Virus record (IMG/VR): IMGVR_UViG_2675903661_000019
Span: 1-12,930 of that record
Length of the DNA: 12,930 nt
Strand: one strand, 5' to 3'
Origin: a virus
Taxonomy: Duplodnaviria > Heunggongvirae > Uroviricota > Caudoviricetes
Below, in pieces: positions 1 to 12,930 of this stretch. The notes beneath the pieces are model-generated. The model searched no databases, had not been told where the DNA came from, and saw nothing but the letters and a program-made list of their open reading frames with translations. Made by a program: the position numbers and the translations under genes. Every line of letters begins with the position of its first letter. Within the stretch, counting starts at the first letter, position 1.

Positions 1-173
1 TGTCAGTTATCATCTTCGGTTACGGTTATCGGCAGAACGCCCTGCCGCTGACAAGAGCTTATTTGCCTGACCAATCTACTCCACATGATAGATAACTATC
101 ATTTATAACATTTCATTGATTAGTCTTTATTTTTCATTGCGTTACAAATAACACCCCAGTCAAAAACAGCGAA

Positions 174-197
174 ATTAACTACACCATTAACTACACC
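174..197. repeat. tandem direct repeat 2 x ATTAACTACACC
   Basis: Perfect 12-bp tandem duplication at 174-185 and 186-197. Confidence 0.6.
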
Positions 198-203
198 GTT
201 TCA

Positions 204-231
204 CGAACAATATCGAACAACCACGAACAAA
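204..231. repeat. three helically phased GAACAA repeats, second copy of the capsid-leader motif
   Basis: GAACAA at 205, 215, 225 (10-bp spacing); 17-bp identity with 7618-7634; preceded by a tandem 12-mer at 174-197. Confidence 0.6.
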
Positions 232-291
232 GATCAACACGCTTTAACCGTTATCATTTTCCGGCTATCCGTTATGAAGCTGGTGGATGTT

Positions 292-319
292 CCCCGATAT
301 GGGGATCCCCATAACGGGG
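292..319. repeat. 28-bp near-perfect palindrome
   Basis: CCCCGATATGGGGATCCCCATAACGGGG, centred on GGATCC, followed by a T7 run at 329-335. Confidence 0.5.
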
Positions 320-580
320 CTACCTGGCTTTTTTTCCGGTTAACCTTTAATCAGGCTGGTGGGCTTTACCTGTTTTGTAGGAGTGGTCATTCTGCCCGAC
401 CGCGCATTTTTGCGCTATCGGGCATATCAAACAGTTACCTCGCCGACTTCCTCAAATTGAGGTTTCCGAAAATATCAGCGGGTTAGCGATTAAGCTGACG
501 AGTAATTAAACTGCGAAAATTTCGTAGTTTGTGAATATATTCCGGCCTGCTGGTTAACAGTCCTCAGATGTGAGGGATGT

Positions 581-626
581 AGCCAGCGCAATTTTGCGCT
601 TTGCTTTAATCTCAGTAAGTTACCGC
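581..626. repeat. 46-bp direct repeat, copy 1 (contains GCGCAATTTTGCGCT hairpin motif)
   Basis: AGCCAGCGCAATTTTGCGCTTTGCTTTAATCTCAGTAAGTTACCGC; 45/46 identical to 717-762. Confidence 0.7.
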
Positions 627-716
627 GCCAATTTCCGCAGTCTGTGTAAATTGGGAAGAATCAACGGGTTAGGCCTTAATCATCTGCGTAAACATAAGTA
701 ATCATAATGATCATTC

Positions 717-762
717 AGCCAGCGCAATTTTGCGCTTTGCTTTAATCTCAGTGAGTTACCGC
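717..762. repeat. 46-bp direct repeat, copy 2 (overlaps 3' end of the 93-aa ORF)
   Basis: AGCCAGCGCAATTTTGCGCTTTGCTTTAATCTCAGTGAGTTACCGC; a third, shorter copy of the GCGCA-N5-TGCGCT core is at 402-416. Confidence 0.7.
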
Positions 763-1037
763 CGCAACCGTTCCGGCTTCTTCCAGTGGTACGTGATTTT
801 CTCCTTCTCCCGATACATCTCCACGCGGCGACGGTATGTCAGCAACTCAAGGACTCTGGTTCGTATGTTGCGCATATCCACGCCGTTAAGCTCAATACCA
901 TCACGGCGCATCACCTCAGCAACAACACGCGCATAATTTTCGGCTGTCACGCTGTCCGGCTGCGTGGTCTGTTCGTCAGCCTGCTGGCTGATTCCAGAGA
1001 CGCGGCGGATTAATCGCAGTATTTCGGCTTCTGTCAT
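756..1037 (-). CDS. hypothetical protein (93 aa) immediately downstream of large terminase
   Basis: Minus-strand ORF; ATG at 1037 lies 14 nt after the terL stop with GAGG about 9 nt upstream; basic C-terminus; last codons overlap the 46-bp direct repeat copy at 717-762. No family recognised. Confidence 0.45.
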   Translation of the reverse strand: MTEAEILRLIRRVSGISQQADEQTTQPDSVTAENYARVVAEVMRRDGIELNGVDMRNIRTRVLELLTYRRRVEMYREKEKITYHWKKPERLRR

Positions 1038-1050
1038 GCTGCTGACCTCA

Positions 1051-2712
1051 TTACACCCCGCTAAATTCTTCCAGTTTCTGGCGGTGGCTGTCGCTTATAT
1101 CAAAAGCAAAATCCTCATGCTCTGCCTGGAATGTACCAAACGCCATCAGCGCCGCTACGCTCGGGTCTATCTTGTTCGGTGATTTTTTCTTGTTCGGCTT
1201 GATATTGGCGTTCGCGTCACTCTGCATCACGACGTTACTCATCGACCAGGACAACACCGGATCGCCACGATGCACAATCACCCTGCGGTTAACAAAAACT
1301 TCGAACGATTTCGCCGCCGGACTGAATCTGAGGTAGGTTTGCGGGAACGGCTCCACCTCAAAACCAGCCCCCTGTAATTGCGTCCTGAGATGCGTGGCGT
1401 TCCACGTATCAAAGCCCACCAGCCTGATATTAAATTTCTCCGCATCCTGCATGATGTCATCTCTGATCCGGTCGTAATCAATGCAGTCACCTGGCGTTGT
1501 GCGTATCCAGCCCGCTTTAGCCCACTGGCGATAGACAGCGCGGTTTTTATTGGCGGGGTTCTGTAGCTGGAACTCCGGCAGATAATGACGGGAAACCAGC
1601 ATGATATTTTTACCGACCGGAAAGGCATAGCACACGCTGGAAATATCGCTGGTTGATGATAAGTCCAGCCCCGCGTAACACTCCTGCCCGTGTAAATCTT
1701 CCTCCGTGAACGTTCCGGCACACTCAGCCCATGCGCCGTTACCCATCCACGGGGTAGCCCCCTGGCACCAGATATTAAATCGCTTTGTCATCATCTCCAC
1801 CCATTGCGACGGAATACCCCGCGCTTTCTGGATGGTTGAGGCCAGTTTTTCACGATCCACGGAAACATCGATGTTAGGGTTAGCCTTTATCCACATCGCC
1901 GGATCATCAACCTCGTTTTCGTCGTCCAGCTCGTAAATCAGCACAAAAATTGAATCGTTGACCTCTTCGCCGTCCAGGATCTGGCAGCAATAATCATAGT
2001 GCTGTTTACAGGTTGAAACGACGTTACTGCCCGATGTGGTAATGGCAAATAACAGCCCTTCGGGACGTGCGCCCATCCCCAGCTCAAGCGCGGAATAAAC
2101 GCCGTTATCGGGGTGTAGGTGGTATTCGTCCACGATGGAAAGGCTGGGGTTTGTTCCCTCGATGGTTGCCGCTTTTGCTGCCAGCGGCTTTAACAGGCTG
2201 TTGCTTTTCGGGTGCATCACCTTGTGGGCCTGAATATTCACCCGCCTGCGTAACGGTCGGGATAAAAGGCACATCTGACGCGCATCATCAAAAACGATCC
2301 GCGCCTGGTCACGGCTCACCGCTGCGGTGTAAATATCCTGCTGCCCGTTCTCCATAATCAGAAACCAGTTAGCCAGAATCGCGGCGGTCGTGGATTTCGC
2401 ATTTTTGCGCGGCACTTCGATAAAGGCGCTCGTGTATTTGCGCCGTCCGGTGGCCTTAACCTTAAAGCCGAGGATGCACGCAAAGGCGAACTGCTGCCAC
2501 GGCTCCAGCTCAATGGGTCTGCCACGCATCGGCCCTTTTACGTGCGGGCACACCCTGGAAAAGGCAATAAACCGCTCCACAACCTCACGATCGAACGTGT
2601 AAAGGGGGCTTTCAAGGTCCGAAAAGTACCGTTTAACGGCCTGTTTCAGCCGTTTACAGGCCGGAATTTTGCCCGTTTTTACGTCTTCTGCGTACTTATT
2701 CCAGGCGGTCAA
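1051..2712 (-). CDS. terL: terminase large subunit (HK97-like, Terminase_1 type)
   Basis: 553-aa ORF; deviant Walker A-like PRKNAKST and Walker B-like LSIVDEYH near the N-terminus, long C-terminal nuclease-size region; apparent TTG start at 2712 with AGAGGA about 5 nt upstream; overlaps terS 3' end by 17 nt. Confidence 0.85.
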   Translation of the reverse strand: MTAWNKYAEDVKTGKIPACKRLKQAVKRYFSDLESPLYTFDREVVERFIAFSRVCPHVKGPMRGRPIELEPWQQFAFACILGFKVKATGRRKYTSAFIEVPRKNAKSTTAAILANWFLIMENGQQDIYTAAVSRDQARIVFDDARQMCLLSRPLRRRVNIQAHKVMHPKSNSLLKPLAAKAATIEGTNPSLSIVDEYHLHPDNGVYSALELGMGARPEGLLFAITTSGSNVVSTCKQHYDYCCQILDGEEVNDSIFVLIYELDDENEVDDPAMWIKANPNIDVSVDREKLASTIQKARGIPSQWVEMMTKRFNIWCQGATPWMGNGAWAECAGTFTEEDLHGQECYAGLDLSSTSDISSVCYAFPVGKNIMLVSRHYLPEFQLQNPANKNRAVYRQWAKAGWIRTTPGDCIDYDRIRDDIMQDAEKFNIRLVGFDTWNATHLRTQLQGAGFEVEPFPQTYLRFSPAAKSFEVFVNRRVIVHRGDPVLSWSMSNVVMQSDANANIKPNKKKSPNKIDPSVAALMAFGTFQAEHEDFAFDISDSHRQKLEEFSGV

Positions 2713-3052
2713 GCTCGTCCTCTTCTTCTGTTTCCGGTGGATTTTTACGGCGGCTTATCGGGTCAAAACCGAGCAAGGAGGCCATTTTTATCATCACTCT
2801 TTCAGCGTCGGATTTTGCGCTTAATGCGGGGTTTCTGCTCTCGCCGCCCTGACTGTTAACAATGATGAACCCGCGCGCCGCAAGGTCTGCAACGGCTTTC
2901 CGGTAAATGGAGTAGTTGACACAATACAGTTCCAGATTGCTCCAGTCGGCGGGGGTCAGGTCTCCCCGTTCCGCAAGCTGCCGCGATTTTTCCCGCCACT
3001 GCTTCACGGCGATATCATCCAGGTAGGCGGGGGCTTTCGGTGGTCTTGCCAT
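2696..3052 (-). CDS. terS: terminase small subunit (P27-like)
   Basis: 118-aa ORF directly upstream of and overlapping terL; N-terminal MARPPKAP and acidic C-terminal tail typical of P27-family small terminases paired with HNH and HK97-type TerL. Confidence 0.75.
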   Translation of the reverse strand: MARPPKAPAYLDDIAVKQWREKSRQLAERGDLTPADWSNLELYCVNYSIYRKAVADLAARGFIIVNSQGGESRNPALSAKSDAERVMIKMASLLGFDPISRRKNPPETEEEDELDRLE

Positions 3053-3120
3053 GCTTATTTTTTCGCCAGATTATTTTTCAAAAAATTCCCGTGCATAAAA
3101 ATTTGAGGAGGCGTTCGGTT

Positions 3121-3170
3121 CTGGGCGGGGTCGGGTTCGTCCTGAAAACTCCCCCCACCCCGTCCGGCTG
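3121..3170. other. candidate cos site region between HNH and terS
   Basis: GC-rich imperfect dyad GGGCGGGGTCGGG ... CCCCCCACCCCG inside the 289-bp non-coding gap between HNH stop (3342) and terS start (3052), the usual cos position in HNH-dependent cos-type HK97-like modules. Confidence 0.3.
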
Positions 3171-3341
3171 CCTCATCAGCGATTGCGGAAACATTCCATA
3201 ACCTCGCGGTCACGGTCGTTTAATCGCGTCGCTGTGATGCGTTCTGCGCGTCCTGATGCTTTATCTTTATGCCCTGTTTCCTGTGCCTTCCATGCGTCAC
3301 GCTGCCTTATAAGTCCACGGATAAGGCGGTTTTGTTCCCGC

Positions 3342-3782
3342 TCATTCATCAGCGCCATACATCCAGTTATTGCGGTTAGCGGCCCGTTCTTCCTCCTCAC
3401 GGAATCCACCCGCAGCACGCTTGTTTTTTGTGGACGGATCAAGCCATTTCGTTTTCTGGTTATGACACGCCTGGCACAATGGCTGATGATTCCACTCAGG
3501 CCAGAAGAGAACATCATTACCGCCATCGATTGGGATAATGTGATCCACCACCACGGCGGGCGTGTATATTCCTTTTTCCAGGCAATGCGCACATAACGGG
3601 TTTTTACTCAGATACATGGCGCGGTATTTCTCCCACTGCCTCGTATACCCTCGCTCCCTGCTGCTGCCTCTCCGGCTGTCCTGCTGCTGGCGTGCGCTGC
3701 GTCTGTGCTCCTCACACTTGCCGGACTTCACGCGCCTGTTGCAGCCTGGTTCTGTACATCGTCTTAATGGTTGCCACGGCAT
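3342..3782 (-). CDS. HNH endonuclease (packaging-associated)
   Basis: 146-aa ORF with Cys-rich N-terminus (CTEPGC, CEEH) and HNH core VVDHIIPIDGGND...LCQACHNQKT; sits upstream of terS as in cos-type HK97-like packaging modules; start overlaps stop of the upstream connector gene. Confidence 0.85.
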   Translation of the reverse strand: MPWQPLRRCTEPGCNRRVKSGKCEEHRRSARQQQDSRRGSSRERGYTRQWEKYRAMYLSKNPLCAHCLEKGIYTPAVVVDHIIPIDGGNDVLFWPEWNHQPLCQACHNQKTKWLDPSTKNKRAAGGFREEEERAANRNNWMYGADE

Positions 3783-4078
3783 CAGTACACCCCCACATCA
3801 CGGTAAGCCGTCCAGAGTGCGCCAATCGTCATGGGTACGTGTGTTTTTGCGTTATCCGCGACAATCTGGCGATTCTCATACAGGTGAGCGATAAACATCA
3901 TGCAGCCAATCTTTATGGCTGGCGTGAACTCCAGCCCGTCATCAAAGCGCCTGCCTATGTGTATCTGGCACGCCTCAAGCGATGCGGCAATGTATCCGCT
4001 GATTAACTGGTCTTCCTCGTCGCCATCGATGCGGCAATGGAGTTTCACTTCTTCCAGGGTGATAAGTTCTTCTGTCAT
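3782..4078 (-). CDS. head-tail connector protein, gp6-like
   Basis: 98-aa ORF beginning MTEELITLEEVKLHCRIDGDEEDQLISGYIAAS, the characteristic N-terminal signature of gp6-like head-tail connector proteins; ATGA start/stop overlap with the upstream gene. Confidence 0.75.
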   Translation of the reverse strand: MTEELITLEEVKLHCRIDGDEEDQLISGYIAASLEACQIHIGRRFDDGLEFTPAIKIGCMMFIAHLYENRQIVADNAKTHVPMTIGALWTAYRDVGVY

Positions 4079-4413
4079 TTTTCCGCGCCCTCACGACAAA
4101 GAATTTCAAGGCGTGTCCTGGCGGCATCCGGCAGCGGCTGCCCGATGATATTCAGTACACGCCCCGCCAGCGGCCCCGTATTGACCTTTATCCGGCTGGT
4201 GGCGTTGATGTCCTTCCGGTACCGTATCCAGATCCTTACGGTACCAATCGCCAGCTCTGCACCCGATGAAATGGCCTCCTTGCTGCTGACCATGTTCACG
4301 CTTGCCCAGAGTGTGTGACCGTCCTCCCACGTTTCGAGTATTTCGCCCGTCATGGCTCTGGTCTGTTTCAGGGTCTGAATCGTTACCCTGTCACGCAGTC
4401 GCCCTATGTTCAT
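4075..4413 (-). CDS. head closure / head-tail joining protein (gp7 or SPP1 gp16-like)
   Basis: ORF extends to 4455, but the internal ATG at 4413 gives MNIGRLRDRVTIQ..., the typical N-terminus for this family, and overlaps the portal stop as ATGA. IRYRKDI and LEILCREG motifs fit head-closure proteins. Start choice is uncertain. Confidence 0.7.
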   Translation of the reverse strand: MNIGRLRDRVTIQTLKQTRAMTGEILETWEDGHTLWASVNMVSSKEAISSGAELAIGTVRIWIRYRKDINATSRIKVNTGPLAGRVLNIIGQPLPDAARTRLEILCREGAEK

Positions 4414-5621
4414 TCCGGTTTTTCTCCCTCGCTGATTTTTACTTCCTGTTTCCATACCTGGCTGAACTCATCACCACCATCACGCGGAGACAACCCTTCT
4501 CGTTCGCGGGCTTCGTTCGGGCACATAACACCGGATTTGATGCCTCGCTCATAGGTGGCAAAGCGTTCGCCAGGTGTGGCCCGTAACAGGTCCGCGCTGT
4601 CAAACTCCACCTGATACCGGATACCAGGTACAGGCGAGACCACCAGCAAGGCGTTTTTTATCTGCTGCTCAAAGTTCGCCAGCCACGGGCGCATCGTCAT
4701 GGTGAGAAATGCGCGGCTTGCCTCGCTGAAATTGCTGTAGGTGCTGTTGCTGTATTCCTGCAGAAAAATCGGCGAGACGTTGAACATTCGGGCGATGTCT
4801 TCAATGGTGAAGCGACGGGAGGCCAGCCATTCGGCGTCCTGGTTACTCATGCCCAGCTGCTGGTAACTCATGCCCCCTTCAAGGATGGGCGTTTTTCCGG
4901 CGTTTCTGGCCCCTTTGTAGCGTTCCAGTGCGGCTAATGCCTGTTTGCCTTTCACGCCGTCCAGCCATTCGCCTGACGTGATAACCCCTGCCGCCATCAT
5001 GCCATCACGCATCACGCTCGCGCCGTGGCGTTGTTGGGCCAGCCCAAGCCCCAGCGATTCGCGGCAGATGGTTACAGGTGAGCGCCCCATAAAGCCGTCA
5101 TCCGTGGAGTAACGAAGGTGAAGTACTTCCCACGGTAAATAGTTGCGGGTGTTTCCGGTGTAGGCGTCAGTGATGCAATAGCGCCAGTTGTGTTCTCCTG
5201 TCTGCTCCACGTTCACCGACTGCGGCGGGTAAGGATGTAAAGCCGCCGGAAAACCATCACGCCCCCACTGAATCACCGCGTAAGCATTACCGTTTAACAG
5301 GCAGTGGCGGATCATCATTCGCTTAAACTGGTAGGGGGTTTGCCATGCGTTCGGGCGCTCGTTGAGGATATGATCGACCGGATGAGAATCAAGCCACTCG
5401 CGGGCCTCCTTCCCCTTCTCATTGCGTACCAGGTACAGGTAGCATGGCATAGTAGCCACCGCCTCAGAGATGACCGTGACGGCGTTCATGACGGCGGGGA
5501 GTGATTCCGCTGTCCCCGATGATACGTACTCACCCGCCCCCGTGTTCGATGTGCCAGCCAGCGCCATAAATTCATCAAGCGTCATGCTGCGCTGCTCTTT
5601 TTTTCTTCTGAAAGGCCACAT
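4410..5621 (-). CDS. portal protein (HK97 family)
   Basis: 403-aa ORF, size and sequence character of HK97-type portals; ATG at 5621 is 1 nt after the protease stop and preceded by GGGGGTG; lies between protease and connector genes. Confidence 0.85.
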   Translation of the reverse strand: MWPFRRKKEQRSMTLDEFMALAGTSNTGAGEYVSSGTAESLPAVMNAVTVISEAVATMPCYLYLVRNEKGKEAREWLDSHPVDHILNERPNAWQTPYQFKRMMIRHCLLNGNAYAVIQWGRDGFPAALHPYPPQSVNVEQTGEHNWRYCITDAYTGNTRNYLPWEVLHLRYSTDDGFMGRSPVTICRESLGLGLAQQRHGASVMRDGMMAAGVITSGEWLDGVKGKQALAALERYKGARNAGKTPILEGGMSYQQLGMSNQDAEWLASRRFTIEDIARMFNVSPIFLQEYSNSTYSNFSEASRAFLTMTMRPWLANFEQQIKNALLVVSPVPGIRYQVEFDSADLLRATPGERFATYERGIKSGVMCPNEAREREGLSPRDGGDEFSQVWKQEVKISEGEKPE

Positions 5622-5622
5622 A

Positions 5623-6180
5623 TCACACCCCCGCTAAATCCGCCCACCAGCGGCGATTATCCGCACGCGGCATTTTTTCGGGGTGCTGCTCATACAGGGA
5701 ACGGCGGGCCAGCTCCACGCCGGAATCGGGGTAAGCCGGTACGGATGTAACGGTAATTTCGTACAGTTCCGCCACCAGCACGGTGCGCACGCATGGATCT
5801 GTTGTGGTATCCCATACATCCTTACGGGAACGAAAGCCAAAGCTCATGCCGGATATATCACCACGTTTAACCAGTTCGATAACGTCACGCCCTGTGCTGG
5901 TATCCGGTGGGGTAAGTTCAAAGCGTAACCCTGTGTCGTCCTCTTCCAGTTTCAGCGTGCCGGAACGGGTGCGCCCCAGTAACATGCTGTGGTCATGCTC
6001 ATACAGGCCGCGAACGTCATTACCCGCCGCAAGCCACTCAGTAAACGCCCCCCGCTGGAATTTTTCGTAAAACTCCCCCCATAACAGTTCCGAAAGGTTA
6101 TCCCAGCGAACAACGTAGCCTGTAAGCGTGTTGCTGGCGCTGGTGGTGATTTCCGATGACCGGATTTCCATACTCTTCAT
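5623..6180 (-). CDS. prohead maturation protease (HK97 gp4-like)
   Basis: ORF is open to 6294, but the ATG at 6180 has GGGTGA about 8 nt upstream and lies after the capsid stop. Protein carries LYEHDHSMLLGRT and GMSFGF motifs typical of HK97-family prohead proteases. Confidence 0.8.
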   Translation of the reverse strand: MKSMEIRSSEITTSASNTLTGYVVRWDNLSELLWGEFYEKFQRGAFTEWLAAGNDVRGLYEHDHSMLLGRTRSGTLKLEEDDTGLRFELTPPDTSTGRDVIELVKRGDISGMSFGFRSRKDVWDTTTDPCVRTVLVAELYEITVTSVPAYPDSGVELARRSLYEQHPEKMPRADNRRWWADLAGV

Positions 6181-6206
6181 AATTTTTTTCACCCATAAAA
6201 CACTAA

Positions 6207-6224
6207 AGGGGCTTTTTAGCCCCT
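6207..6224 (-). promoter_or_regulatory. GC-rich hairpin between capsid and protease genes (possible attenuator)
   Basis: Minus strand AGGGGC-TAAAAA-GCCCCT followed by an interrupted T-rich tract (TTAGTGTTTTA), in the 55-nt gap between capsid stop and protease start. Confidence 0.4.
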
Positions 6225-6235
6225 TCTGTATGCTG

Positions 6236-7393
6236 TTAATCGTCGTCCTGTGGCAGTTCCAGAATCTTGATCGCGTTCGAATCCACCACGCCACCGCCTA
6301 AATATTTTTGCGTGAAAATTTTGATGAATCCTGGTTCTGTCAGGTTGTCCGGTCTGGTGCGAACACCTGTTTCGTGATCAACGATGTAGTAACCGCGTTT
6401 AAAGTCGCCCAGGGCAATAACGTTATCCGGCATAAACTCCAGATATTCGACCGGAAGGCCCAGCAACGTATCAGGATCACCCGCCTGTAAACGGTCACGC
6501 CAGATGTAATCACCGTTCGCGTTCTTCACCTTCTGGAGTTTTGCCGCCGTCGTGGAGTTAACCACCCAGACCGCGTTTTTGCGGTATTTTTTACGTAATG
6601 CAAATTTCAGGTCGATCAGCGGGTCCGCAGATGTCCACGCCAGAGATTCGGAAGGTTTAATTACCTGCAACGTACCAAAATCACGCTCTTTGTCGTTCTT
6701 CTCTGCACGGGGTACGGATAAAAAGCCTTTTGCTTTTTTGTCACCGTCGCCCACAACCAGATCGCTTTCTTCGGTTTCCGTGAAGGTGTCGCCAATCTCG
6801 CCCGTCAGCCATGAAAGGATGTCCACATCGGAAAAATCCACGATTTCCTGCGTGGTGCGCGGGTACGCATAGACCGGATACAGCTTAATGCTCACCTCGT
6901 TAATCTGCGGGGTGCTGGTCTGTTCGCGTGCCTTACCCTCTTCACCGTGGTTAACGGTCGCACCGCCAGCGGAAACAAGCTGCTTAAACTCGTTGCTGCT
7001 GATTTTCTTCACGGTACAGATGCGGCGCATGGTGGATTCATCCGTCAGCATTCGCATGATTTCGGTGTTCAGTTCGGGGATAACGGTATAACCACCATCA
7101 GCGGGAACGCCTGTACTCAATGCGCGGGTTTCACCTGTCAGAATGTAGTGACGTAGTTCGGCGGGGTCAGTGGTCTGGCTGTTTTTGCCTGGTTTACTGC
7201 GCTCTTCGTCAGCAACGGCCTCAAGGCGGGAGATGTCTTTATCGAGTGATTCAGCTTTAGCGCGTAATTCGTCAAATTTTGCGCCCTCAGCATCGTTAAG
7301 ACTGCGGTTTTCTTTTTCCGCGTTCTCCAGCATGTCGCGCATCTGATTTTTAATGGCGGTTTTCTGCTGGCGTAATTCGATTATTCTCGGCAT
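6236..7393 (-). CDS. major capsid protein (HK97 fold) with N-terminal coiled-coil delta/scaffold-like region
   Basis: 385-aa ORF; charged, coiled-coil-like first ~70 aa (EKENRSLNDAEGAKFDELRAKAESLDKDISRLEAVADEE) followed by a capsid-size body; ATG at 7393. Confidence 0.85.
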   Translation of the reverse strand: MPRIIELRQQKTAIKNQMRDMLENAEKENRSLNDAEGAKFDELRAKAESLDKDISRLEAVADEERSKPGKNSQTTDPAELRHYILTGETRALSTGVPADGGYTVIPELNTEIMRMLTDESTMRRICTVKKISSNEFKQLVSAGGATVNHGEEGKAREQTSTPQINEVSIKLYPVYAYPRTTQEIVDFSDVDILSWLTGEIGDTFTETEESDLVVGDGDKKAKGFLSVPRAEKNDKERDFGTLQVIKPSESLAWTSADPLIDLKFALRKKYRKNAVWVVNSTTAAKLQKVKNANGDYIWRDRLQAGDPDTLLGLPVEYLEFMPDNVIALGDFKRGYYIVDHETGVRTRPDNLTEPGFIKIFTQKYLGGGVVDSNAIKILELPQDDD

Positions 7394-7430
7394 AAAAAAA
7401 GTCCTGGGGTTAAGTAAGGAACTCCAGGAC
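7394..7430 (-). promoter_or_regulatory. hairpin plus U7 tract immediately upstream of the capsid start codon, sequestering the SD
   Basis: Minus strand reads GTCCTGG-(16 nt loop)-CCAGGAC-TTTTTTT-ATG; the only SD-like element (AGGA) lies in the 3' arm of the stem. Confidence 0.5.
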
Positions 7431-7483
7431 GCGGCAAAAACTCAACCGTTTTTCATAAGGGAATCAGCAATCGCACCGATCGT

Positions 7484-7531
7484 TTTCCCGCCTGGTAATG
7501 AATATTGGCGAGCACATTAACAGGCGGGAAA
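7484..7531. promoter_or_regulatory. 11-bp perfect inverted repeat with 26-bp spacer in capsid operon leader
   Basis: TTTCCCGCCTG at 7484-7494 and CAGGCGGGAAA at 7521-7531. Confidence 0.45.
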
Positions 7532-7603
7532 GTGGCCCCAGCGTCCTGGCACCACGGGCGAGAATAATCATGATTCAGTTCGGGTAAAATATGCCGATCC
7601 GCT

Positions 7604-7634
7604 CAGTGAACAACGTGGAACAACCACGAACAAA
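7604..7634. repeat. three helically phased GAACAA repeats upstream of capsid operon
   Basis: GAACAA at 7608, 7618, 7628 (exact 10-bp spacing); 17-bp core GAACAACCACGAACAAA (7618-7634) is identical to 215-231. Confidence 0.6.
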
Positions 7635-7640
7635 TAATTT

Positions 7641-7674
7641 ACAAAAAATAACAAAAAGCCGGATTGCTCCGGCT
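7641..7674 (-). terminator. intrinsic terminator after the 74-aa gene
   Basis: On the minus strand: stem AGCCGGA / TCCGGCT with 4-nt loop, followed by TTTTTGTTATTTTTT; lies 10 nt after the stop at 7685. Confidence 0.75.
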
Positions 7675-7684
7675 GTATGGGTGC

Positions 7685-7909
7685 TCAGTCCCTGATCCCT
7701 TTCAGAAATTCTATCAATGCATCTGTCTGTTCAGGATTTACCGCCAGCATTTCACCGGATAGCGCGCAACGAACAAAACCATGATGATCCTTTTCAATCA
7801 GCGCCCCCGTTTCCAGGAATGCGCGGTAATCAGTGATGTTCATCGTCTCCATGTTGTCAGCATGGTATTTATCACGCTGTTTTAATATCTCATCAAATTT
7901 CGTCGGCAT
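7685..7909 (-). CDS. hypothetical acidic protein (74 aa)
   Basis: ORF is open to 7987, but the ATG at 7909 has GAGGA about 7 nt upstream (MPTKFDEILKQ...). Stop at 7685 is followed by an intrinsic terminator. No family recognised. Confidence 0.5.
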   Translation of the reverse strand: MPTKFDEILKQRDKYHADNMETMNITDYRAFLETGALIEKDHHGFVRCALSGEMLAVNPEQTDALIEFLKGIRD

Positions 7910-8003
7910 TGTTTTTTCCTCTGTTGTGTCTGTTTGTTTCAGATAGTAACTATGCCGGACCGTGACGAAAAGCCAGTAGTGCGCCATACCATTTCAAATG
8001 ACG

Positions 8004-8028
8004 CAAAAAAAGCCGGATTGCTCCGGCT
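8004..8028 (-). terminator. intrinsic terminator after the 82-aa gene (near-identical copy of the 7641-7674 terminator)
   Basis: Same AGCCGGA-GCAA-TCCGGCT hairpin followed by a T7 run on the minus strand; about 24 bp identical to the other copy. Confidence 0.75.
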
Positions 8029-8050
8029 GCGTGGTGTGGTTCTGATATTC

Positions 8051-8299
8051 CTACTCAGCTAATTTGCTCAGCCCCATGTCTGCATAAGTGCGATTTACTG
8101 CATTTCTCAGGTCTGCGTAGTTCTCCGTTGGCGGCTCCGGTGGCCTCTGTGCCTTCCTGGAACATTCCAGCCGTCGCATCGTAACCTGATGCCGTTCCTT
8201 GTCTATCTCCACCAGTTGCATGACTTCACCCCATCGCGCCGACGCCCTCCGGTAAAAGCCTTTTGCCTCGAGTTCCTCCGCTATGCGGTCATGTACCAT
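8051..8299 (-). CDS. hypothetical protein (82 aa)
   Basis: ATG at 8299 is preceded by GAGGGGG, which overlaps the SSB stop codon (TGAGGGGGTGACGATG); ORF ends at 8051 and is followed by an intrinsic terminator. The longer track ORF (to 8419) would overlap SSB by 110 nt. No family recognised. Confidence 0.5.
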   Translation of the reverse strand: MVHDRIAEELEAKGFYRRASARWGEVMQLVEIDKERHQVTMRRLECSRKAQRPPEPPTENYADLRNAVNRTYADMGLSKLAE

Positions 8300-8309
8300 C
8301 GTCACCCCC

Positions 8310-8720
8310 TCAGAACGGAATACCGTCACCGTAAGGGTCATCGCCTCCCGCTGGTGGCTGATTACCCTGTGTGCCTGTGGTTTTGCGTCTGTTCCCGCCA
8401 GGACGTGCCGCACGGGCACTGATTACGCTGTCTGCAATAACCTGATAACCCTGCCGCGTTTCCCCGTTCTGTCCGGTCCACTGGCTGACCTGCATCGTGC
8501 CGGATACGCTGGCAACGTCGCCTTTTTGATGTTTAGCCAGGAAGTCGGCCTGCTTACCAAATGCGATGACCGATAGCCATAACGTAGCCTGCCCATCCTG
8601 CGCCTGACTACATGGCAACGATACCGCCATACGTGCCAGCGTCATTGGTGTGCCCTTGCTGGTCTGTTTTACCTGCGGGTCGTCCACCAGCCGCCCGTAA
8701 GCTGCTATCTGTGCTGTCAT
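8310..8720 (-). CDS. ssb: single-stranded DNA-binding protein (SSB-like)
   Basis: 136-aa ORF; OB-fold-like core alignable by eye to E. coli SSB (conserved Trp in SQWTGQNG matching RKWTDQSG), Gly/Pro-rich linker and C-terminal acidic tip DDPYGDGIPF resembling the SSB DDDIPF tail; ATGA overlap with the upstream gene. Confidence 0.75.
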   Translation of the reverse strand: MTAQIAAYGRLVDDPQVKQTSKGTPMTLARMAVSLPCSQAQDGQATLWLSVIAFGKQADFLAKHQKGDVASVSGTMQVSQWTGQNGETRQGYQVIADSVISARAARPGGNRRKTTGTQGNQPPAGGDDPYGDGIPF

Positions 8721-9031
8721 GATTCCACCTCTCCGGTTTTAACGTTGATGGTTGTTACCTGTTCCGCTTCGGCAATCTCCCGTTCTGTCAGCGTGGCAAA
8801 GTTTGCCGCCGCCGTGGTCATGAATGCGCTTATCAGGTCGGGATGTTCCTTCGCGTATCCTTCCCGCGTGTGGCGGTCTATCGTTCTGATTGCCACCTTT
8901 AAGGTGTGCTCAGTCATGTCTAACGCTTTATATTTTGGCTCTGTTCTGTCTCTGCGAATTTTGGTCATTTGTCGCCCCTGATTCATGTTTTCGGCTGGCA
9001 TGTTTGTTAAGTGATTTTGATGTATGCGCAT
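8717..9031 (-). CDS. hypothetical protein (104 aa)
   Basis: ATG at 9031 preceded by GAGGGGG about 9 nt upstream; first gene downstream of the iteron region; translationally coupled to SSB. No family recognised. Confidence 0.5.
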   Translation of the reverse strand: MRIHQNHLTNMPAENMNQGRQMTKIRRDRTEPKYKALDMTEHTLKVAIRTIDRHTREGYAKEHPDLISAFMTTAAANFATLTEREIAEAEQVTTINVKTGEVES

Positions 9032-9078
9032 TTATTTTCACCCCCTCGTTTAAAAAGTTTTTAGTTGTGCCTCCCCCC

Positions 9079-9302
9079 CCTCTACCCATCTACCCGAATG
9101 CTCATCATGTCAGTAATGGCGCGGCTTTCAGCGGGTAGATAGCTTTTTGGGCTCCTCTACCTGCCGTCTACCCTGCTACCTGAAACTGATAAAATCAGGT
9201 AGAAGAGGTAGAGAGCTTTTATTAGCCTTCTACCTGGCCCTCTACCCACTTATCATGTTGAATAATATGTATTTATTTCATTCAGGTAGATGGGGTAGAG
9301 GG
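9079..9302. repeat. iteron array, candidate origin of replication
   Basis: About 12 copies of CCTCTACCC / GGGTAGAGG-type motifs (core TCTACC / GGTAGA) in both orientations within ~220 bp, interspersed with AT-rich stretches (9250-9283), directly downstream of the primase stop at 9316. Confidence 0.7.
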
Positions 9303-9315
9303 CTTTTACAAAAAA

Positions 9316-11070
9316 TTATAAAAACGCGTCGCAATCGTCTGTTGTAATTGCGTTGGTCTGCGTTACTCCCTTAACTTTTCGCGTAATATATTCATGCCCG
9401 TAAACTTTCGCCGCTGGCTTCATGGCCTTGCTGAACTCAGCCACGTTTAGCGGTTTGCTCCTGCCTGCGTATGCCATAAACGCCAGATAGACGCGGTAAA
9501 GGCTGTTCCTGGTCGTGTACTTCACTGAATCGCCACCGCCCCCCATCATCAGGCCGCGCGCTTCCTCCAGAAAATTCAGGAACTGGCAAAACTCAATAAC
9601 CGGATCCGTCTGTTGCTTTATTGCCAGTGCTTCATCACCGTCACGCTGTTCCAGTAGTAAAGCCCGTGCCTTCTCAGGGTCGGTAAAGTTCGCCAGCAAG
9701 CGGCGGATAATAACGGGGATTTCAGCCGCAATCTTTTCCGGTAGTTCCCTGTCTTTTTCGGCCTCACTGACGATATTGTCGAAACGGAAAATCACGCGAC
9801 GACGTGCCACACCTCCGGCCCGTTCGGTGAATATCATCGGGTTATTGTTGGTCGCCAGCACCACCGCCCTGATTACAGCCGTGAAACGCTTTTCGTATTT
9901 CGGGTTAATTTCCACGGGGTCACCGCCCGTGATTTTCTTGATGCCCGTTCCTTCGCCTGTATATTTCGGCTGGTCAGCCAGGACGATAAGACGACTCCCG
10001 ACAACCTGCGCACGTCCACCAGCATCATCAAGCGATGTCATTTCAGCGCTTACCGTGTTCTGTTTCCCTGCCAGAAGGCTGGCTATGTGTGTGAATGTAC
10101 TTTTACCGCTCCCGCCGTCTCCGGTGGCCTCAATAAACATCTGCCAGTCGTACCGGTTCGCCATAATCATGTACAGCGCGGCACATATACGCATCATCTT
10201 GCGCGGGTCTTTTCCGGCTGCGTGCTCAAGCCATTTATGAAAGTTTGGCGCGTTATCGCGGATGTTCTCCCCTGGTGCTGGTGGCGTGTACTCAATACCG
10301 TTGTGCGTGGTGATCCAGTTCTCCGGCGTGTGCGGGGAAAATTCCCCCGTTTTCAGGTCAAGCGCACCATTGGCAAACGGCAGCAAATCGCCGGACGGCT
10401 CGCCCATTGGTTCGGCAATAACTTTTAACGCTTCCACGGCGTTATTGATTACGCGCTTGCTGAAAGTGGCCCTGTGCTCTGAATAGATCGCCACCATTTC
10501 GCGGCTAAGTTCCATTGTACTGACCGGACACCATACCCCGCCGCGCCATACGTGGACGATTTCACTTTCAGGATGTACGCAAATGCCATCAAAGCGCCCG
10601 GCAAGCAGCTGCGCGCGCTCACTGTCCGCCATCTGCGAAAGTTGTGCCTTTTGCTTTACCGGAAGCTCAATGACCAGACCATCAGAAAGATTCTGGCGCT
10701 CACGGGCCAGATATTCGCGCCAGTTCTCCACCTTCTGAACGTGCATTCCCTCAGGGTAAAAATTTGCATCCTGTACGCCTGCCGCCGCCAGTTTCTGACC
10801 AATCGCCTTGATCATTACTGGCTCAAGATGTCCGGCCCTGAATATGCGTACTGATTTTCTGCCTTCCGGCACAATTTGCAGCTTATCCAGTTCGGATAAC
10901 TGCTGCTCCCCAAGCCACACAGGAGGCTCATTATCTCCGGCCATACGCGCGTCATGTTCCTGCCATTGTTTTGCGTGTGACCAGGCATCACTACCCGCAA
11001 AAATAATGACTTCTGTTTCTTTGTGTTTTATGCCGCGTGACTGCTGTTTTACGTTCGGTGCCAGTTTCAT
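9316..11070 (-). CDS. primase/helicase, P4-alpha / D5-like (satellite Pri-Rep type)
   Basis: 584-aa ORF with central P-loop NTPase Walker A GDGGSGKST and Walker B-like LIVLAD, N-terminal primase-like region; ATGA overlap with the upstream 99-aa gene; iteron-rich AT-containing region begins right at its stop. Confidence 0.8.
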   Translation of the reverse strand: MKLAPNVKQQSRGIKHKETEVIIFAGSDAWSHAKQWQEHDARMAGDNEPPVWLGEQQLSELDKLQIVPEGRKSVRIFRAGHLEPVMIKAIGQKLAAAGVQDANFYPEGMHVQKVENWREYLARERQNLSDGLVIELPVKQKAQLSQMADSERAQLLAGRFDGICVHPESEIVHVWRGGVWCPVSTMELSREMVAIYSEHRATFSKRVINNAVEALKVIAEPMGEPSGDLLPFANGALDLKTGEFSPHTPENWITTHNGIEYTPPAPGENIRDNAPNFHKWLEHAAGKDPRKMMRICAALYMIMANRYDWQMFIEATGDGGSGKSTFTHIASLLAGKQNTVSAEMTSLDDAGGRAQVVGSRLIVLADQPKYTGEGTGIKKITGGDPVEINPKYEKRFTAVIRAVVLATNNNPMIFTERAGGVARRRVIFRFDNIVSEAEKDRELPEKIAAEIPVIIRRLLANFTDPEKARALLLEQRDGDEALAIKQQTDPVIEFCQFLNFLEEARGLMMGGGGDSVKYTTRNSLYRVYLAFMAYAGRSKPLNVAEFSKAMKPAAKVYGHEYITRKVKGVTQTNAITTDDCDAFL

Positions 11071-11366
11071 TTTTTACCCCTGAATCCGTTAATCATGGTT
11101 TTCAGCTTCTGGATGTTTTCCCGTGCTCTGGCGTTGCTGGTGGGCACGTTATGCGGCGCGGTCTGTACCAGAGAAAAATCACGCCGGAACTGATAAACAG
11201 GCATCACGCAATCATATTCGTAACCTTCACGGCGGTAAGTTACGCACCGTCCCGCCACACCCTTAATCATTACCGTGCCGCCGTACTGGTCGCGGTAAAT
11301 ATCACCGCGCGTAAATTTAGGGTGAGTGTTGCCACTGGCAGTTAAGCCAGAATATTTAAGTTTCAT
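11067..11366 (-). CDS. hypothetical protein (99 aa)
   Basis: ATG at 11366 with GGAGA about 9 nt upstream; stop overlaps the primase start; position resembles small early genes that precede primase in P4-like elements. No family recognised. Confidence 0.5.
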   Translation of the reverse strand: MKLKYSGLTASGNTHPKFTRGDIYRDQYGGTVMIKGVAGRCVTYRREGYEYDCVMPVYQFRRDFSLVQTAPHNVPTSNARARENIQKLKTMINGFRGKK

Positions 11367-11371
11367 TATTT

Positions 11372-11599
11372 TTATTCTCCGGTGTGGGGCGCTTTATTAT
11401 TTTCGATAATATCCATCGCCTTATCCAGTTCATCAATAACAGGCGATAGTAATGTCTGAATGGCTGCAAACATTAATGACGAAGATTCTTCGCCAGATTC
11501 CGGCGCTTCAATTAATTTGCCTAACAACGCATTCATTTCGCGCGCTTTAATTAATGCGTTTTCAGAATGAATAAGAACATCAAAGGGTATTTTATGCAT
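11372..11599 (-). CDS. hypothetical acidic protein (75 aa)
   Basis: ATG at 11599 preceded by AGGGGGTGA; acidic, helical-looking sequence; first confidently coding gene of the leftward early operon. Confidence 0.5.
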   Translation of the reverse strand: MHKIPFDVLIHSENALIKAREMNALLGKLIEAPESGEESSSLMFAAIQTLLSPVIDELDKAMDIIENNKAPHTGE

Positions 11600-12056
11600 G
11601 ACTCACCCCCTGGCGAATACGGGCGACAAAAATCAGATGTGTGTGCGGCAGCTGGGCGCGTGCTTCGCCTTCTGTTGCTGCCGTGACGGTAAAGAGTGAT
11701 CTTTGTTTTTCCTGGCACTGCATAAAGCGCCAGACAAAGTAAGGGCGTGCGGATACAGCCATGTGAAAGGCTCCCAAAGTGAAATTAAGGAGTCTCGCTA
11801 CTACGCTGCTAAACGGGGTGGCGAGACGTAACAGGGTTAGCAGACTGGCACTTTGGGAACCAGCGAGCGCAAAGGCTCCCCCGTTACGCCCCGCCATAAT
11901 GCGGGTATGGGTAGGCTTACGGACACAAAAAAACCGCATATCGGAATGTAAGCGGCTGTCCGCCAAAGTATTCAGGCTGCTAAACCCGGTCGCCATGTGG
12001 GCGACGGGGGAAGCATACAGCCCCGTTATAATTTTTTGCAAGCGGTTTTTACGCAT
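11592..12056 (-). CDS. candidate ORF (154 aa, very basic), doubtful; may instead be structured leader RNA
   Basis: ATG at 12056 with CAGGGG 8 nt upstream; 3' end overlaps the next start as CATGCATAA. Its last ~50 codons and the downstream junction are duplicated in the preceding segment (12049-12200). Composition (Ala/Arg/Leu/Ser-rich, few acidic residues) is atypical. Confidence 0.25.
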   Translation of the reverse strand: MRKNRLQKIITGLYASPVAHMATGFSSLNTLADSRLHSDMRFFCVRKPTHTRIMAGRNGGAFALAGSQSASLLTLLRLATPFSSVVARLLNFTLGAFHMAVSARPYFVWRFMQCQEKQRSLFTVTAATEGEARAQLPHTHLIFVARIRQGVSHA

Positions 12057-12330
12057 GATGTGACCCCTGACGAATACGGGCGGCAAATACAGCAACACAA
12101 CCAGACGGGCAACGGCTACGCGCTTCGCGTTCCGTCCAGGCGGTTACGTGGATGATTTGAGATTCTCCGGCACTCAGGGCCAGAAAACGCCAGATGTATT
12201 TATTCAGGTTGTGCGAGTCCCGCCCTTGCGGGTGTGTGATATGATTTCTCATAGCTACCTCGATACTTTCGCTATCGTTGGTGGTCAGAGGCTGCGAAAG
12301 GACGGCAATCCTTTTCAGCCTCGTTTGCAT

Positions 12331-12430
12331 TGAGTGATAAACACTCAGCTGGATTCCAGTATAATCACTAAGTGGAATCCACTTCAAGCGTTTTGTTTTG
12401 GTCTTTTTCGTGTATACTGGATTCCAGTAA
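12331..12430. promoter_or_regulatory. divergent overlapping promoters with three TGGAWTCCA palindromic operators
   Basis: TGGATTCCA at 12350-12358 and 12418-12426, TGGAATCCA at 12373-12381; plus-strand -10 TATAAT at 12360-12365 and TATACT at 12413-12418; minus-strand TTGAAG, 18 nt spacer, TATACT (rc of 12358-12387); palindrome GAGTG-ATAAA-CACTC at 12332-12346. Confidence 0.6.
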
Positions 12431-12448
12431 TCACAAAGGGAACCAGAA

Positions 12449-12628
12449 ATGGAAAGAGACCATATCAATAACAAATCACAGAAATTACAGGCTCGCGCCC
12501 CGCATGAAGTTGTTGAGGCTATGGAGCAAGTAAAAGAAACAGGCGAGAGCACTGCGCAATTTATCGTTACAGCCATGCGAGGCGAGATCAAACGCCGCCA
12601 GCGCCGTAAGGCCAAAGAATCAGAATAA
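12449..12628 (+). CDS. small ribbon-helix-helix-like DNA-binding regulator (59 aa)
   Basis: Not in the ORF track (below 60 aa). ATG at 12449 with AAGGGA upstream, TAA at 12626-12628. KLQARAP (beta strand), HEVVEAMEQVKETGESTAQFIVTAM (helix, G-x-S turn, helix) then a basic tail fits the RHH pattern; transcribed divergently from an operator-rich region. Confidence 0.55.
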   Translation: MERDHINNKSQKLQARAPHEVVEAMEQVKETGESTAQFIVTAMRGEIKRRQRRKAKESE

Positions 12629-12685
12629 TCACTATCAGCGCCGTGGTGTGAGGTACTACGGCGCATTGCTTTACAGGGCAGTACC

Positions 12686-12913
12686 ATGACCAACAACACA
12701 CTATCACCAATACAAGACACGCAAACGCAAGATGATGAAATCATCCGGCAAAGGCAGTCAGAAGCCTGCGCCAGAGTTGAGGAAGAACTAACCAGAACAA
12801 AAATACCACCACCAGCGCCGCGCTTAATGCCACCAGAAAAATTTGCCCTTGAAGATTTTGTCGAGAAATACCCACGGCGGTTAAAAGCCACTAAAAACCG
12901 ACCGCCTGGCTGA
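12686..12913 (+). CDS. hypothetical protein (75 aa)
   Basis: ORF downstream of the RHH gene on the same strand; weak SD (AGGG); Pro-rich centre. No family recognised. Confidence 0.4.
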   Translation: MTNNTLSPIQDTQTQDDEIIRQRQSEACARVEEELTRTKIPPPAPRLMPPEKFALEDFVEKYPRRLKATKNRPPG

Positions 12914-12930
12914 TAGCCTTGTCCACCAGC

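Follow-up and report, generated by a model that had tools for sequence, protein, structure and literature searches.

Introduction

Roi and Rha are proteins of lambdoid phages that have the Phage_pRha domain in common, and the products of HK022 roi and of phi80 and P22 rha reportedly block lytic growth without integration host factor (IHF) (Clerget and Boccard 1996; Henthorn and Friedman 1995). Repetitive extragenic palindromic (REP) units of bacterial interspersed mosaic element 1 (BIME-1, or reiterative ihf BIME, RIB) are imperfect palindromes of 30–40 nt with a conserved 5' GTAG; REP and inverse REP (iREP) copies form inverted pairs around an IHF linker, there are hundreds of copies in the chromosome, and BIME-1 elements lie at 3' ends of transcription units. 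Satellites of the capsid-forming phage-inducible chromosomal island (cf-PICI) type have the published layout capsid-protease-portal-connectors-hnh-terS-terL, and in published phage-inducible chromosomal islands (PICIs) the replication origin lies next to the replication gene. Here we analyse a 12,930-nucleotide stretch of DNA, positions 1 to 12,930 of the IMG/VR virus record IMGVR_UViG_2675903661_000019 (the window), and in particular its repeat-rich left end, which is the junction of a cf-PICI satellite with the E. coli chromosome. Our tentatively preferred explanation, taken as a whole, is that positions 1–102 are host DNA and attachment (att) core, that 103 to about 299 form an att arm, and that the non-coding tail from about 290 to 755 is an array of Roi/Rha-operator and IHF sites.

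Results

Modular anatomy of the non-coding tail

Tails of this and related islands, when split at conserved motifs, fall into units of about 48–54 nt, and the modules as a whole measure 45–55 nt. Each module consists of a variable GC-rich hairpin, a spacer TTTCCGAAAA and a conserved 13-mer that is exactly the IHF consensus WATCARNNNNTTR; the hairpin stems differ from module to module (GCGCA, CCTCA, CCCCC, CAGCC, CGCC, CCGCAG and others). We read the tail as an array of predicted composite Roi/Rha-operator and IHF sites of several specificities, of which the window would hold five modules with at least three palindrome types:

393–437, + strand: module 1, nested hairpin TGCCCGACC-GCGCATTTTTGCGC-TATCGGGCA (393–424) and IHF consensus TATCAAACAGTTA (425–437)
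450–485, + strand: module 2, roi-type; palindrome CCTCAAATTGAGG (450–462), 10 nt, then IHF consensus TATCAGCGGGTTA (473–485)
585–622, + strand: module 3, rha-type, at the core of the first 46/51-bp copy; hairpin AGCGCAATTTTGCGCT (585–600), 9 nt, then the one-mismatch IHF motif TCTCAGTAAGTTA (610–622)
628–671, + strand: module 4, palindrome CCAATTTCCGCAG-T-CTGTGTAAATTGG (628–654) and IHF consensus AATCAACGGGTTA (659–671)
721–758, + strand: module 5, the second 46/51-bp copy; the same hairpin (721–736) and a degenerate IHF motif (746–758), its end overlapping the stop codon of the last gene

Every repeat that a first-pass annotation of the window had named is present and non-random. Its 46-bp direct repeats and the third copy of their core lie where it placed them, and the repeats extend to 51 nt (581–631 and 717–767, 94% identity, with one mismatch in the 46-nt core). 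The core GCGCAWTTTTGCGCT occurs three times, at 402, 586 and 722, and a longer degenerate repeat, 402–493 against 586–679, is an addition to that annotation. The open reading frame (ORF) predicted at 274–486 exists and is not a conserved coding sequence, since the sister islands L003 and L004 have a 7-nt indel inside it; a coding tail was rejected, the ORFs being short and unconserved.

Four matches to WATCARNNNNTTR occur in the 12.9-kb window, three of them within 250 nt of the tail (425, 473 and 659), all on the + strand. Across 28 distinct tails (23 kb) there are 70 + strand matches versus 0.7 expected, and distant cf-PICI tails that have no BLAST similarity to the window tail contain matches in the same orientation. 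Many sister tails contain a perfect IHF consensus 13 nt ahead of the stop codon of the 93-residue gene that ends the satellite. The spacing between hairpin and IHF consensus was tested by anchoring on perfect hairpins only, to avoid circularity: WATCARNNNNTTR starts 8–10 nt past the hairpin in 88 of 359 cases, at none of the other offsets from 0 to 32 and nowhere on the opposite strand. This fixed geometry is common to 17 different hairpin sequences. The 30-mers upstream of the IHF consensus fold better than shuffled sequences (P = 4e-10) and better than coding DNA, and compensatory variants (AGCGCA/TGCGCT to AGCTCA/TGAGCT, and GTGCA/TGCAC) occur in an otherwise conserved context.

The segment 240–760 as a whole folds far better than its dinucleotide shuffles (z = −4.7 on the + strand and −5.4 on the − strand). 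Such strong structure on both strands, in an array that immediately follows the final gene of the packaging operon, would suit a boundary element, that is, a REP/BIME-like array that terminates or stabilises transcripts of the late operon or incoming + strand transcripts, with IHF insulating the island topologically from clpS or int. This reading, for which the documented roles of REP/BIME sequences and the IHF linker of BIME-1 provide precedent, would also account for the TTT(C/G) that follows each hairpin on the + strand and for two weak + strand terminator-like sites (585–600 and 721–736). We nevertheless consider it improbable, since these terminator-like matches number 2 versus 1.3 expected from shuffles, none lies on the − strand, and there are no U-tracts on that strand, which is the strand of the operon ending there. 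The tail matched no Rfam family (Rfam 15 gave one chance-level match, E = 0.44), and the roi/rha homology described below and the 8–10-nt coupling to IHF would be left unexplained. The plus-strand terminators against read-in that the first-pass annotation had envisaged are a weak alternative, with two marginal candidates at chance level.

Homology of the modules to roi and rha

The modules are 82–91% identical to one segment within the Phage_pRha domain of lambdoid-phage roi/rha genes. In particular, the rha-type module matches Rha-family genes of Shiga toxin (Stx) phages over 39 nt at 82% identity, and a 23-mer of the 46-bp repeat is found inside rha-family coding sequences, where it encodes ERNFALCF. 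The CCTCA module (window 443–477) is 91% identical over 35 nt to a roi-internal segment of HK620, H-19B, HK75, HK633, HK140, P27 and Stx phages. For the CCCCC module the matches are to other roi-like alleles, and the CCGCAG palindrome type of module 4 lies inside a roi-like gene of the IMG/VR phage contigs L177, L186 and L168. Three roi alleles have the IHF consensus at the same nucleotide offset, 152, each preceded by an allele-specific palindrome; these palindromes encode LPQIEV, HPQIED and LPPMGI. The roi segment that matches the tail modules comprises Roi codons about 38–57 and is reportedly where, in HK022, Roi binds its own gene next to an IHF site.

When four Roi/Rha proteins were compared with 72 tails by tblastn, all 116 matches (116/116) were on the + strand and were confined to Roi residues about 40–58. 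Because the matches are confined to this part of Roi, the tails represent one repeated segment and not decayed genes; a whole-gene rha or roi pseudogene was ruled out, one segment alone being present. No protein with a pRha domain was found among the window ORFs scanned with Pfam and PHROGs. The tail modules thus have the fixed palindrome–IHF spacing and the homology expected of a Roi/Rha operator with IHF site, and they lie in non-coding DNA instead of inside the cognate gene.

Distribution of the tail among satellites

Sequence from about 290 on is common to satellites at other att sites, namely phoQ, bioD, tqsA and narP. With any att site and any packaging module, the tail is placed between att and the final gene of the satellite. 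The modules are present in 949 of 5426 E. coli genomes (about 17%), at 1–4 places per genome, and every place examined is a satellite tail, mostly following the 93-residue gene (not in the O157 PICI L003 or in L103-type loci). K-12 has no tail modules. Since K-12 is free of them and all their 1–4 places per genome are, where examined, satellite tails, the repeats are not a host family; the common host intergenic repeat at unrelated loci, which the first-pass annotation had named as the finding that would overturn its view, is not what we see. At normal thresholds the tail has no nucleotide similarity to phages. Four plasmid records match, at least one of which is implausibly large (1.4 Mb) for a plasmid.

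The tails are mosaic. They are 720–1320 bp long without annotated genes, and their blocks vary in number and order, so variably that module number, module order and tail length differ even among near-identical islands. This would be expected if the tail were recombination debris, a neutral stretch that lies between att and the final gene and gathers short roi/rha fragments of helper phages, with the hairpin or IHF-bent segment as a hotspot of illegitimate or short-homology exchange. The modules would then have no function, apart perhaps from padding that holds genome length to what the capsid can take. Consistent with debris, junctions fall at a conserved GTTACCGC motif, and related tails carry other cargo, such as an entire origin cassette of GCGGGTTAT iterons with duplicated palindrome modules on its flanks. 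However, only one segment of 16–20 codons is ever found, in up to 6 copies and in one orientation; its palindromic symmetry survives sequence change, no examined island has lost the tail, and perfect IHF sites are retained at about 100 times the expected frequency. We therefore regard debris as a rather unlikely explanation and return to the array of predicted Roi/Rha and IHF sites as the preferred one.

The origin-like cassette was observed in the tails L096, L098, L124, L130, L142 and L103. It consists of GCGGGTTAT x3, an AT-rich stretch with an IHF site, and ATAACCCGC x3, and in some tails duplicated 'triple palindrome' blocks border it. In the island of strain N10 (L001 13604–13917), the same iterons adjoin the DUF927 rep gene. 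The cassette is a relocated origin or else a second one, comparable to P4 crr. After the cf-PICI terL, L103-type loci (IMG/VR) have the origin cassette, next an ORF like the C-terminal part of a large terminase and a portal-like ORF of 408 residues (assigned by eye), which suggests an adjoining prophage. The rha-type 23-mer additionally occurs in non-coding DNA of other integrase-bearing islands, L018 and L044 (IMG/VR), the second of which also encodes an AlpA-like protein and a putative replication protein of 585 residues. In both, a small RNA is possible because a strong terminator lies about 100 nt after the 23-mer.

Other features of the tail

Ahead of module 1, the window contains four further features:

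279–286, + strand: Chi site GCTGGTGG, kept in sister tails
292–319, no strand assigned: 28-bp palindrome with the conserved core CGATATGGGGATCCCCAT(A/T) centred on GATC; it opens the block of about 290–384 common to tails at all att sites
322–340, + strand: hairpin with a T7 loop or run (ACCTGGC-T7-CCGGT); sister tails have CCGGAA-T5-TTCCGG
355–362, + strand: second Chi site, part of an 18-nt sequence whose perfect inverted copy lies in terL (1411–1428)

The 28-bp palindrome reported in the first-pass annotation is present, with arms 292–305 and 306–319 that are 93% complementary, and L003 has three copies of it. Its 24-nt core (294–317) is 100% identical to DNA of phage B2 that carries no annotated feature, and the related phages Gluttony, Lust, Pride and Pubbukkers (~44 kb) have 1–3 copies of this core. 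The 18-nt perfect inverted match, ATCAGGCTGGTGGGCTTT, contains Chi and joins window 350–367 with 1411–1428 in the terL coding sequence.

Altogether, the 12.9 kb contain 15 Chi sites GCTGGTGG, 7 on the + strand and 8 on the − strand, whereas shuffles give 0.45. They start at 279, 355, 1416, 4195, 4640, 5644, 5772, 6139, 8350, 8684, 10016, 10277, 11136, 12809 and 12923. The E. coli average, by our own estimate one Chi per 4–5 kb, would yield about 3 in 12.9 kb. Sister islands are likewise Chi-rich. This suggests that satellite DNA, in linear or concatemeric form, is shielded from RecBCD; on Chi richness of PICIs, no report turned up in a literature search.

The att junction and the integrase arm

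The left end of the window comprises the following features:

1–91, no strand assigned: host chromosome upstream of the clpS start codon; clpS is on the − strand, just left of the window
92–102, no strand assigned: att core ATAACTATCAT (attL), overlapping the yljB stop codon of the empty site
103–299, + strand: island-side att arm, distal to int, an integrase-type-specific block conserved among clpS/yljB islands
109–121, − strand: IHF-like site between core and arm repeats, with one mismatch to YAANNNNTTGATW; a weak match only, read from sequence
174–197, + strand: two tandem 12-mers ATTAACTACACC (174–185 and 186–197), probable integrase arm-type sites, which recur in the other arm
203–230, + strand: three (A/T)CGAACAA heptamers or octamers at 203, 213 and 223, with 10-bp spacing; probable sites for an excisionase (AlpA-like) or second arm-type sites

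Window positions 1–106 correspond to the K-12 clpS/yljB intergenic region, and 5425 of the 5426 complete E. coli genomes contain this stretch at 99% identity. The core was placed by comparing attL (window), attB (K-12) and attR (strain N10), whose flanks swap partner on either side of it: the 11-mer ATAACTATCAT is identical in attL (92–102), attB (K-12 L002 1592–1602) and attR (N10 island L009 4183–4193). Because this common core occupies 92–102, island DNA starts at 103. Comparison with an empty chromosomal site, which the first-pass annotation had put forward as a check, thus locates the junction, and its view of the region as the structural end of the element holds for the end of an integrated element and fails for a start at base 1, positions 1–91 being host DNA followed by the core. 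Among the loci examined the site is used exclusively by satellites.

The insertion point coincides with the stop codon of yljB and is 91 bp from the start codon of clpS, on its upstream side, and clpS-clpA is therefore cut off from DNA further upstream. Read-through from the late operon would enter clpS. The att part is ordinary, yet it fixes the exact insertion point.

The arm, 103–299, is 94–98% conserved across all clpS/yljB-site islands with any packaging module. The wider block 1–369 likewise shows 94–98% identity, only among islands at this site and in cf-PICIs and other PICI types alike. The tandem 12-mer that the first-pass annotation had placed at 174–197 is indeed ATTAACTACACC twice, and its GAACAA triplet is the (A/T)CGAACAA series. 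A 12-mer pair, ATTAACTACACC-ATTGACTACACC, is also found in the int-proximal arm of N10 (L009 4033–4056), 24 nt from the int start codon, together with several copies of CGAACAA or ACGAACAC in the same orientation as in window 174–230. Both arms thus bear a ATTRACTACACC pair and CGAACA-type repeats, equally oriented and distinct from the core, and in sister islands a tyrosine integrase of 412 residues adjoins attR, outside the window. As same-orientation copies sit on both arms, we read the 12-mers and heptamers as arm-type sites. Arms of related islands at the phoQ and tqsA sites retain the ACTACACC pair with different heptamers; on this ground, the 12-mers would belong to the integrase and the heptamers to another factor. 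Thus, the tandem ACTACACC 12-mers are predicted arm-type sites of the tyrosine integrase of the island, and the phased ACGAACAA repeats are predicted sites for an excisionase-like partner or for the integrase itself.

The first-pass annotation had interpreted the region chiefly as att-proximal DNA with recombinase or accessory-factor sites. For the 12-mers and the ACGAACAA-type heptamers, which recur in the int-proximal arm of sister islands, this interpretation is borne out. Extended to the whole of 103–762, so that every repeat would be a recombinase or accessory site, it draws on the fact that the region adjoins the core, that the repeats at 174–230 behave as arm-type sites and that IHF is a standard att accessory factor. 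The distribution of the modules largely refutes it, and we consider so long an arm very unlikely: modules from about 295 on occur with other integrase and att types, no module repeat recurs in the int-proximal arm, and the modules lie 290–660 bp from the core, far past usual arm lengths. The 46-bp repeats, the GCGCA hairpins and the 28-bp palindrome, in particular, fall outside the att-specific block, are present at other att sites and are homologous to roi/rha.

Two more exact ACGAACAA copies occur at 7626–7633 and 7769–7776, on the + strand upstream of the capsid gene, giving 4 exact copies in the window versus about 0.4 expected; given these copies, one factor might act on both att and the control region of the late operon. 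In E. coli ZH063 (L007) an arm 87% identical to window 94–299 begins about 340 bp downstream of the bioD stop codon. This bioD-side arm has the variant core ACTGTCAT and looks like secondary-site integration by the same integrase type.

Satellite identity and gene content

The DNA from 103 on is a cf-PICI satellite. Pfam and PHROGs scans of its ORFs place all genes of the window on the − strand, in the order 93-residue phrog_1561 protein, TerL, TerS (Terminase_4), HNH, head-tail adaptor, head closure proteins, portal, prohead protease and HK97-type capsid protein, followed by PerC, SSB and a D5_N/DUF5906 helicase. The island accordingly encodes its own major capsid protein, protease, portal, connectors, HNH, TerS and TerL (1051–7393), and has a D5_N helicase with an iteron origin; no tail or lysis genes were found among the remaining window ORFs scanned. 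Sister islands occupy about 15 kb between clpS and yljB and end in a helix-turn-helix regulator and a tyrosine integrase by yljB/cspD, in keeping with the int, alpA-type regulator, replicon of their own and 10–15 kb size of cf-PICIs, whose att sites prophages do not use.

The gene next to the non-coding tail is:

756–1037, − strand: last satellite gene, 93 residues, phrog_1561, preceding the tail in most islands examined

It is missing in the O157 PICI L003, where the tail abuts a capsid gene, and in L103-type loci, where there is no match; a query of GTDB genomes returned only 2 related loci. We dropped the idea that its product binds the tail, as it has no domain match and its homologues are all annotated 'hypothetical'. 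An AlphaFold2 model shows three helices at low confidence (predicted local distance difference test score, pLDDT, 67), too weak for a fold search.

The origin of the window, at 9075–9310, consists of CTCTACC/GGTAGAG-type iterons in both orientations around an AT-rich stretch and lies directly downstream of the D5_N/DUF5906 helicase gene (9316–11070). The gap between HNH and TerS (3053–3341, 289 bp) contains an ORF of 60 residues in the annotation of relatives. By analogy with HK97-type phages that encode HNH, we presume that the cohesive end site (cos) lies in this gap.

That the non-coding tail is itself the packaging (cos) site or the replication origin could be argued from its wealth of IHF sites and palindromes, from its position beside the terminase genes and from the origin cassette in the tails of related islands. 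We find this scarcely credible. Similarity of the palindrome block of the tail to lambda cos is within that of shuffles, the tail is common to satellites with three different TerS types, its blocks are duplicated in some tails (multi-copy in L003), and it is located downstream of terL; as to an origin, the window has its own beside the helicase gene, and the tail lacks such iteron sets. Among other candidates, CCTCAAATTGAGG resembles the lambda ori iteron ITN3 (13/18), but neither its spacing nor its context suits an origin. Arrays of the integron attC, CRISPR-like or type III antitoxin kind were dropped because the sequence has none of their defining motifs or neighbouring genes, and no sigma-70 promoter was found in 1–1100.

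Discussion

From the anatomy, geometry, homology and distribution of the tail, we infer that proteins bind it and what this binding might bring about. In the scheme we propose, Roi/Rha expressed by a helper phage would come together with host IHF on the tail. As it replicates, the satellite might thereby titrate the helper regulator, the tail serving as a decoy, or it might read the presence of the regulator at its att-proximal end, the tail serving as a sensor. In the excised circle the tail is flanked by the late operon and by attP-int, on the same strand, so that a nucleoprotein complex on it could also gate read-through into int. A broader claim, that E. coli PICIs and cf-PICIs carry an att-adjacent array of several specificities which captures the anti-repressor-like helper regulators Roi/Rha as a decoy or as a signal of helper activity, is one we would hold only as doubtful; if the palindromes match the roi/rha alleles of helpers, the composition of the tail would record helper range.

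Several observations weigh against a reading of the tail as an operator array. The rha-type modules, that is, the 46-bp repeats themselves, hold just a one-mismatch IHF motif, and the match counts are not independent events because the tails are closely related and recombining. Conservation of the IHF consensus in phages could be driven by the protein, since within roi it also codes for R/N-I-N-G/N-L. The palindrome types TTCGCC and CAGCC have as yet no counterpart in a phage gene, the Phage_pRha match of one roi-like gene stays under the Pfam threshold, and module order and number vary freely, as neutral shuffling would also give. Finally, the reading presupposes that Roi binds inside its own gene beside an IHF site and is stabilised there by IHF, as Clerget and Boccard (1996) reportedly found.

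How Gram-negative PICIs sense or interfere with their helpers is only partly known, and the tail array offers a concrete and cheap hypothesis. Titration, if it occurs, would be a new, DNA-decoy form of helper interference, and binding, if the satellite uses it so, would supply the signal of an active and suitable helper phage that has long been sought. A 2018 PICI paper described the activator as still to be identified. The proposal would also give a function to 0.6–1.3 kb of non-coding DNA in roughly one-sixth of E. coli genomes, and the tail modules would serve as a sequence marker for satellite ends. Literature searches did not retrieve the non-coding tail or its relation to roi/rha, nor do accessible PICI and cf-PICI papers contain them; on that ground, the relation of the tail to roi/rha operators appears unreported.

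Set beside known systems, the att portion of the locus is like the attP arms of lambda- or P2-type tyrosine integrases: a short core is shared with attB, direct arm-type repeats flank it on both sides, sites for a second protein are phased, and an IHF-like site lies between core and arm sites. This likeness is limited to 92 to about 299. As a satellite, the island has the gene set and order of the published cf-PICI layout, as in EcCIEDL933, and, as in classical E. coli PICIs, its origin adjoins the replication gene; it differs in its non-coding tail, IHF array and link to roi/rha, which accessible papers on these elements do not describe. With BIME-1 (RIB, or repetitive IHF-binding palindromic elements, RIP) the tail shares short GC-rich palindromes combined with an IHF site, a position after the last gene of an operon and a copy number that varies among strains. 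However, the tail has no REP consensus or conserved 5' GTAG, and its palindromes are single, direct and 13–28 nt long, absent from K-12 and confined to satellites. The tail also resembles the autoregulatory Roi site of HK022 and rha of phi80 and P22, with which it has in common a DNA segment at 82–91% identity, the palindrome with IHF consensus and the fixed spacing; in roi alleles of HK620, JLK-2012, Stx-phage and IMG/VR origin, the segment lies at the same Phage_pRha codons. Whereas the phage has one copy inside the gene for the binding protein, the satellite tail has 1–6 tandem copies of mixed specificity outside genes, with no pRha protein among the ORFs scanned. We thus rate the tail as a known composite site that is redeployed as an array in a satellite.

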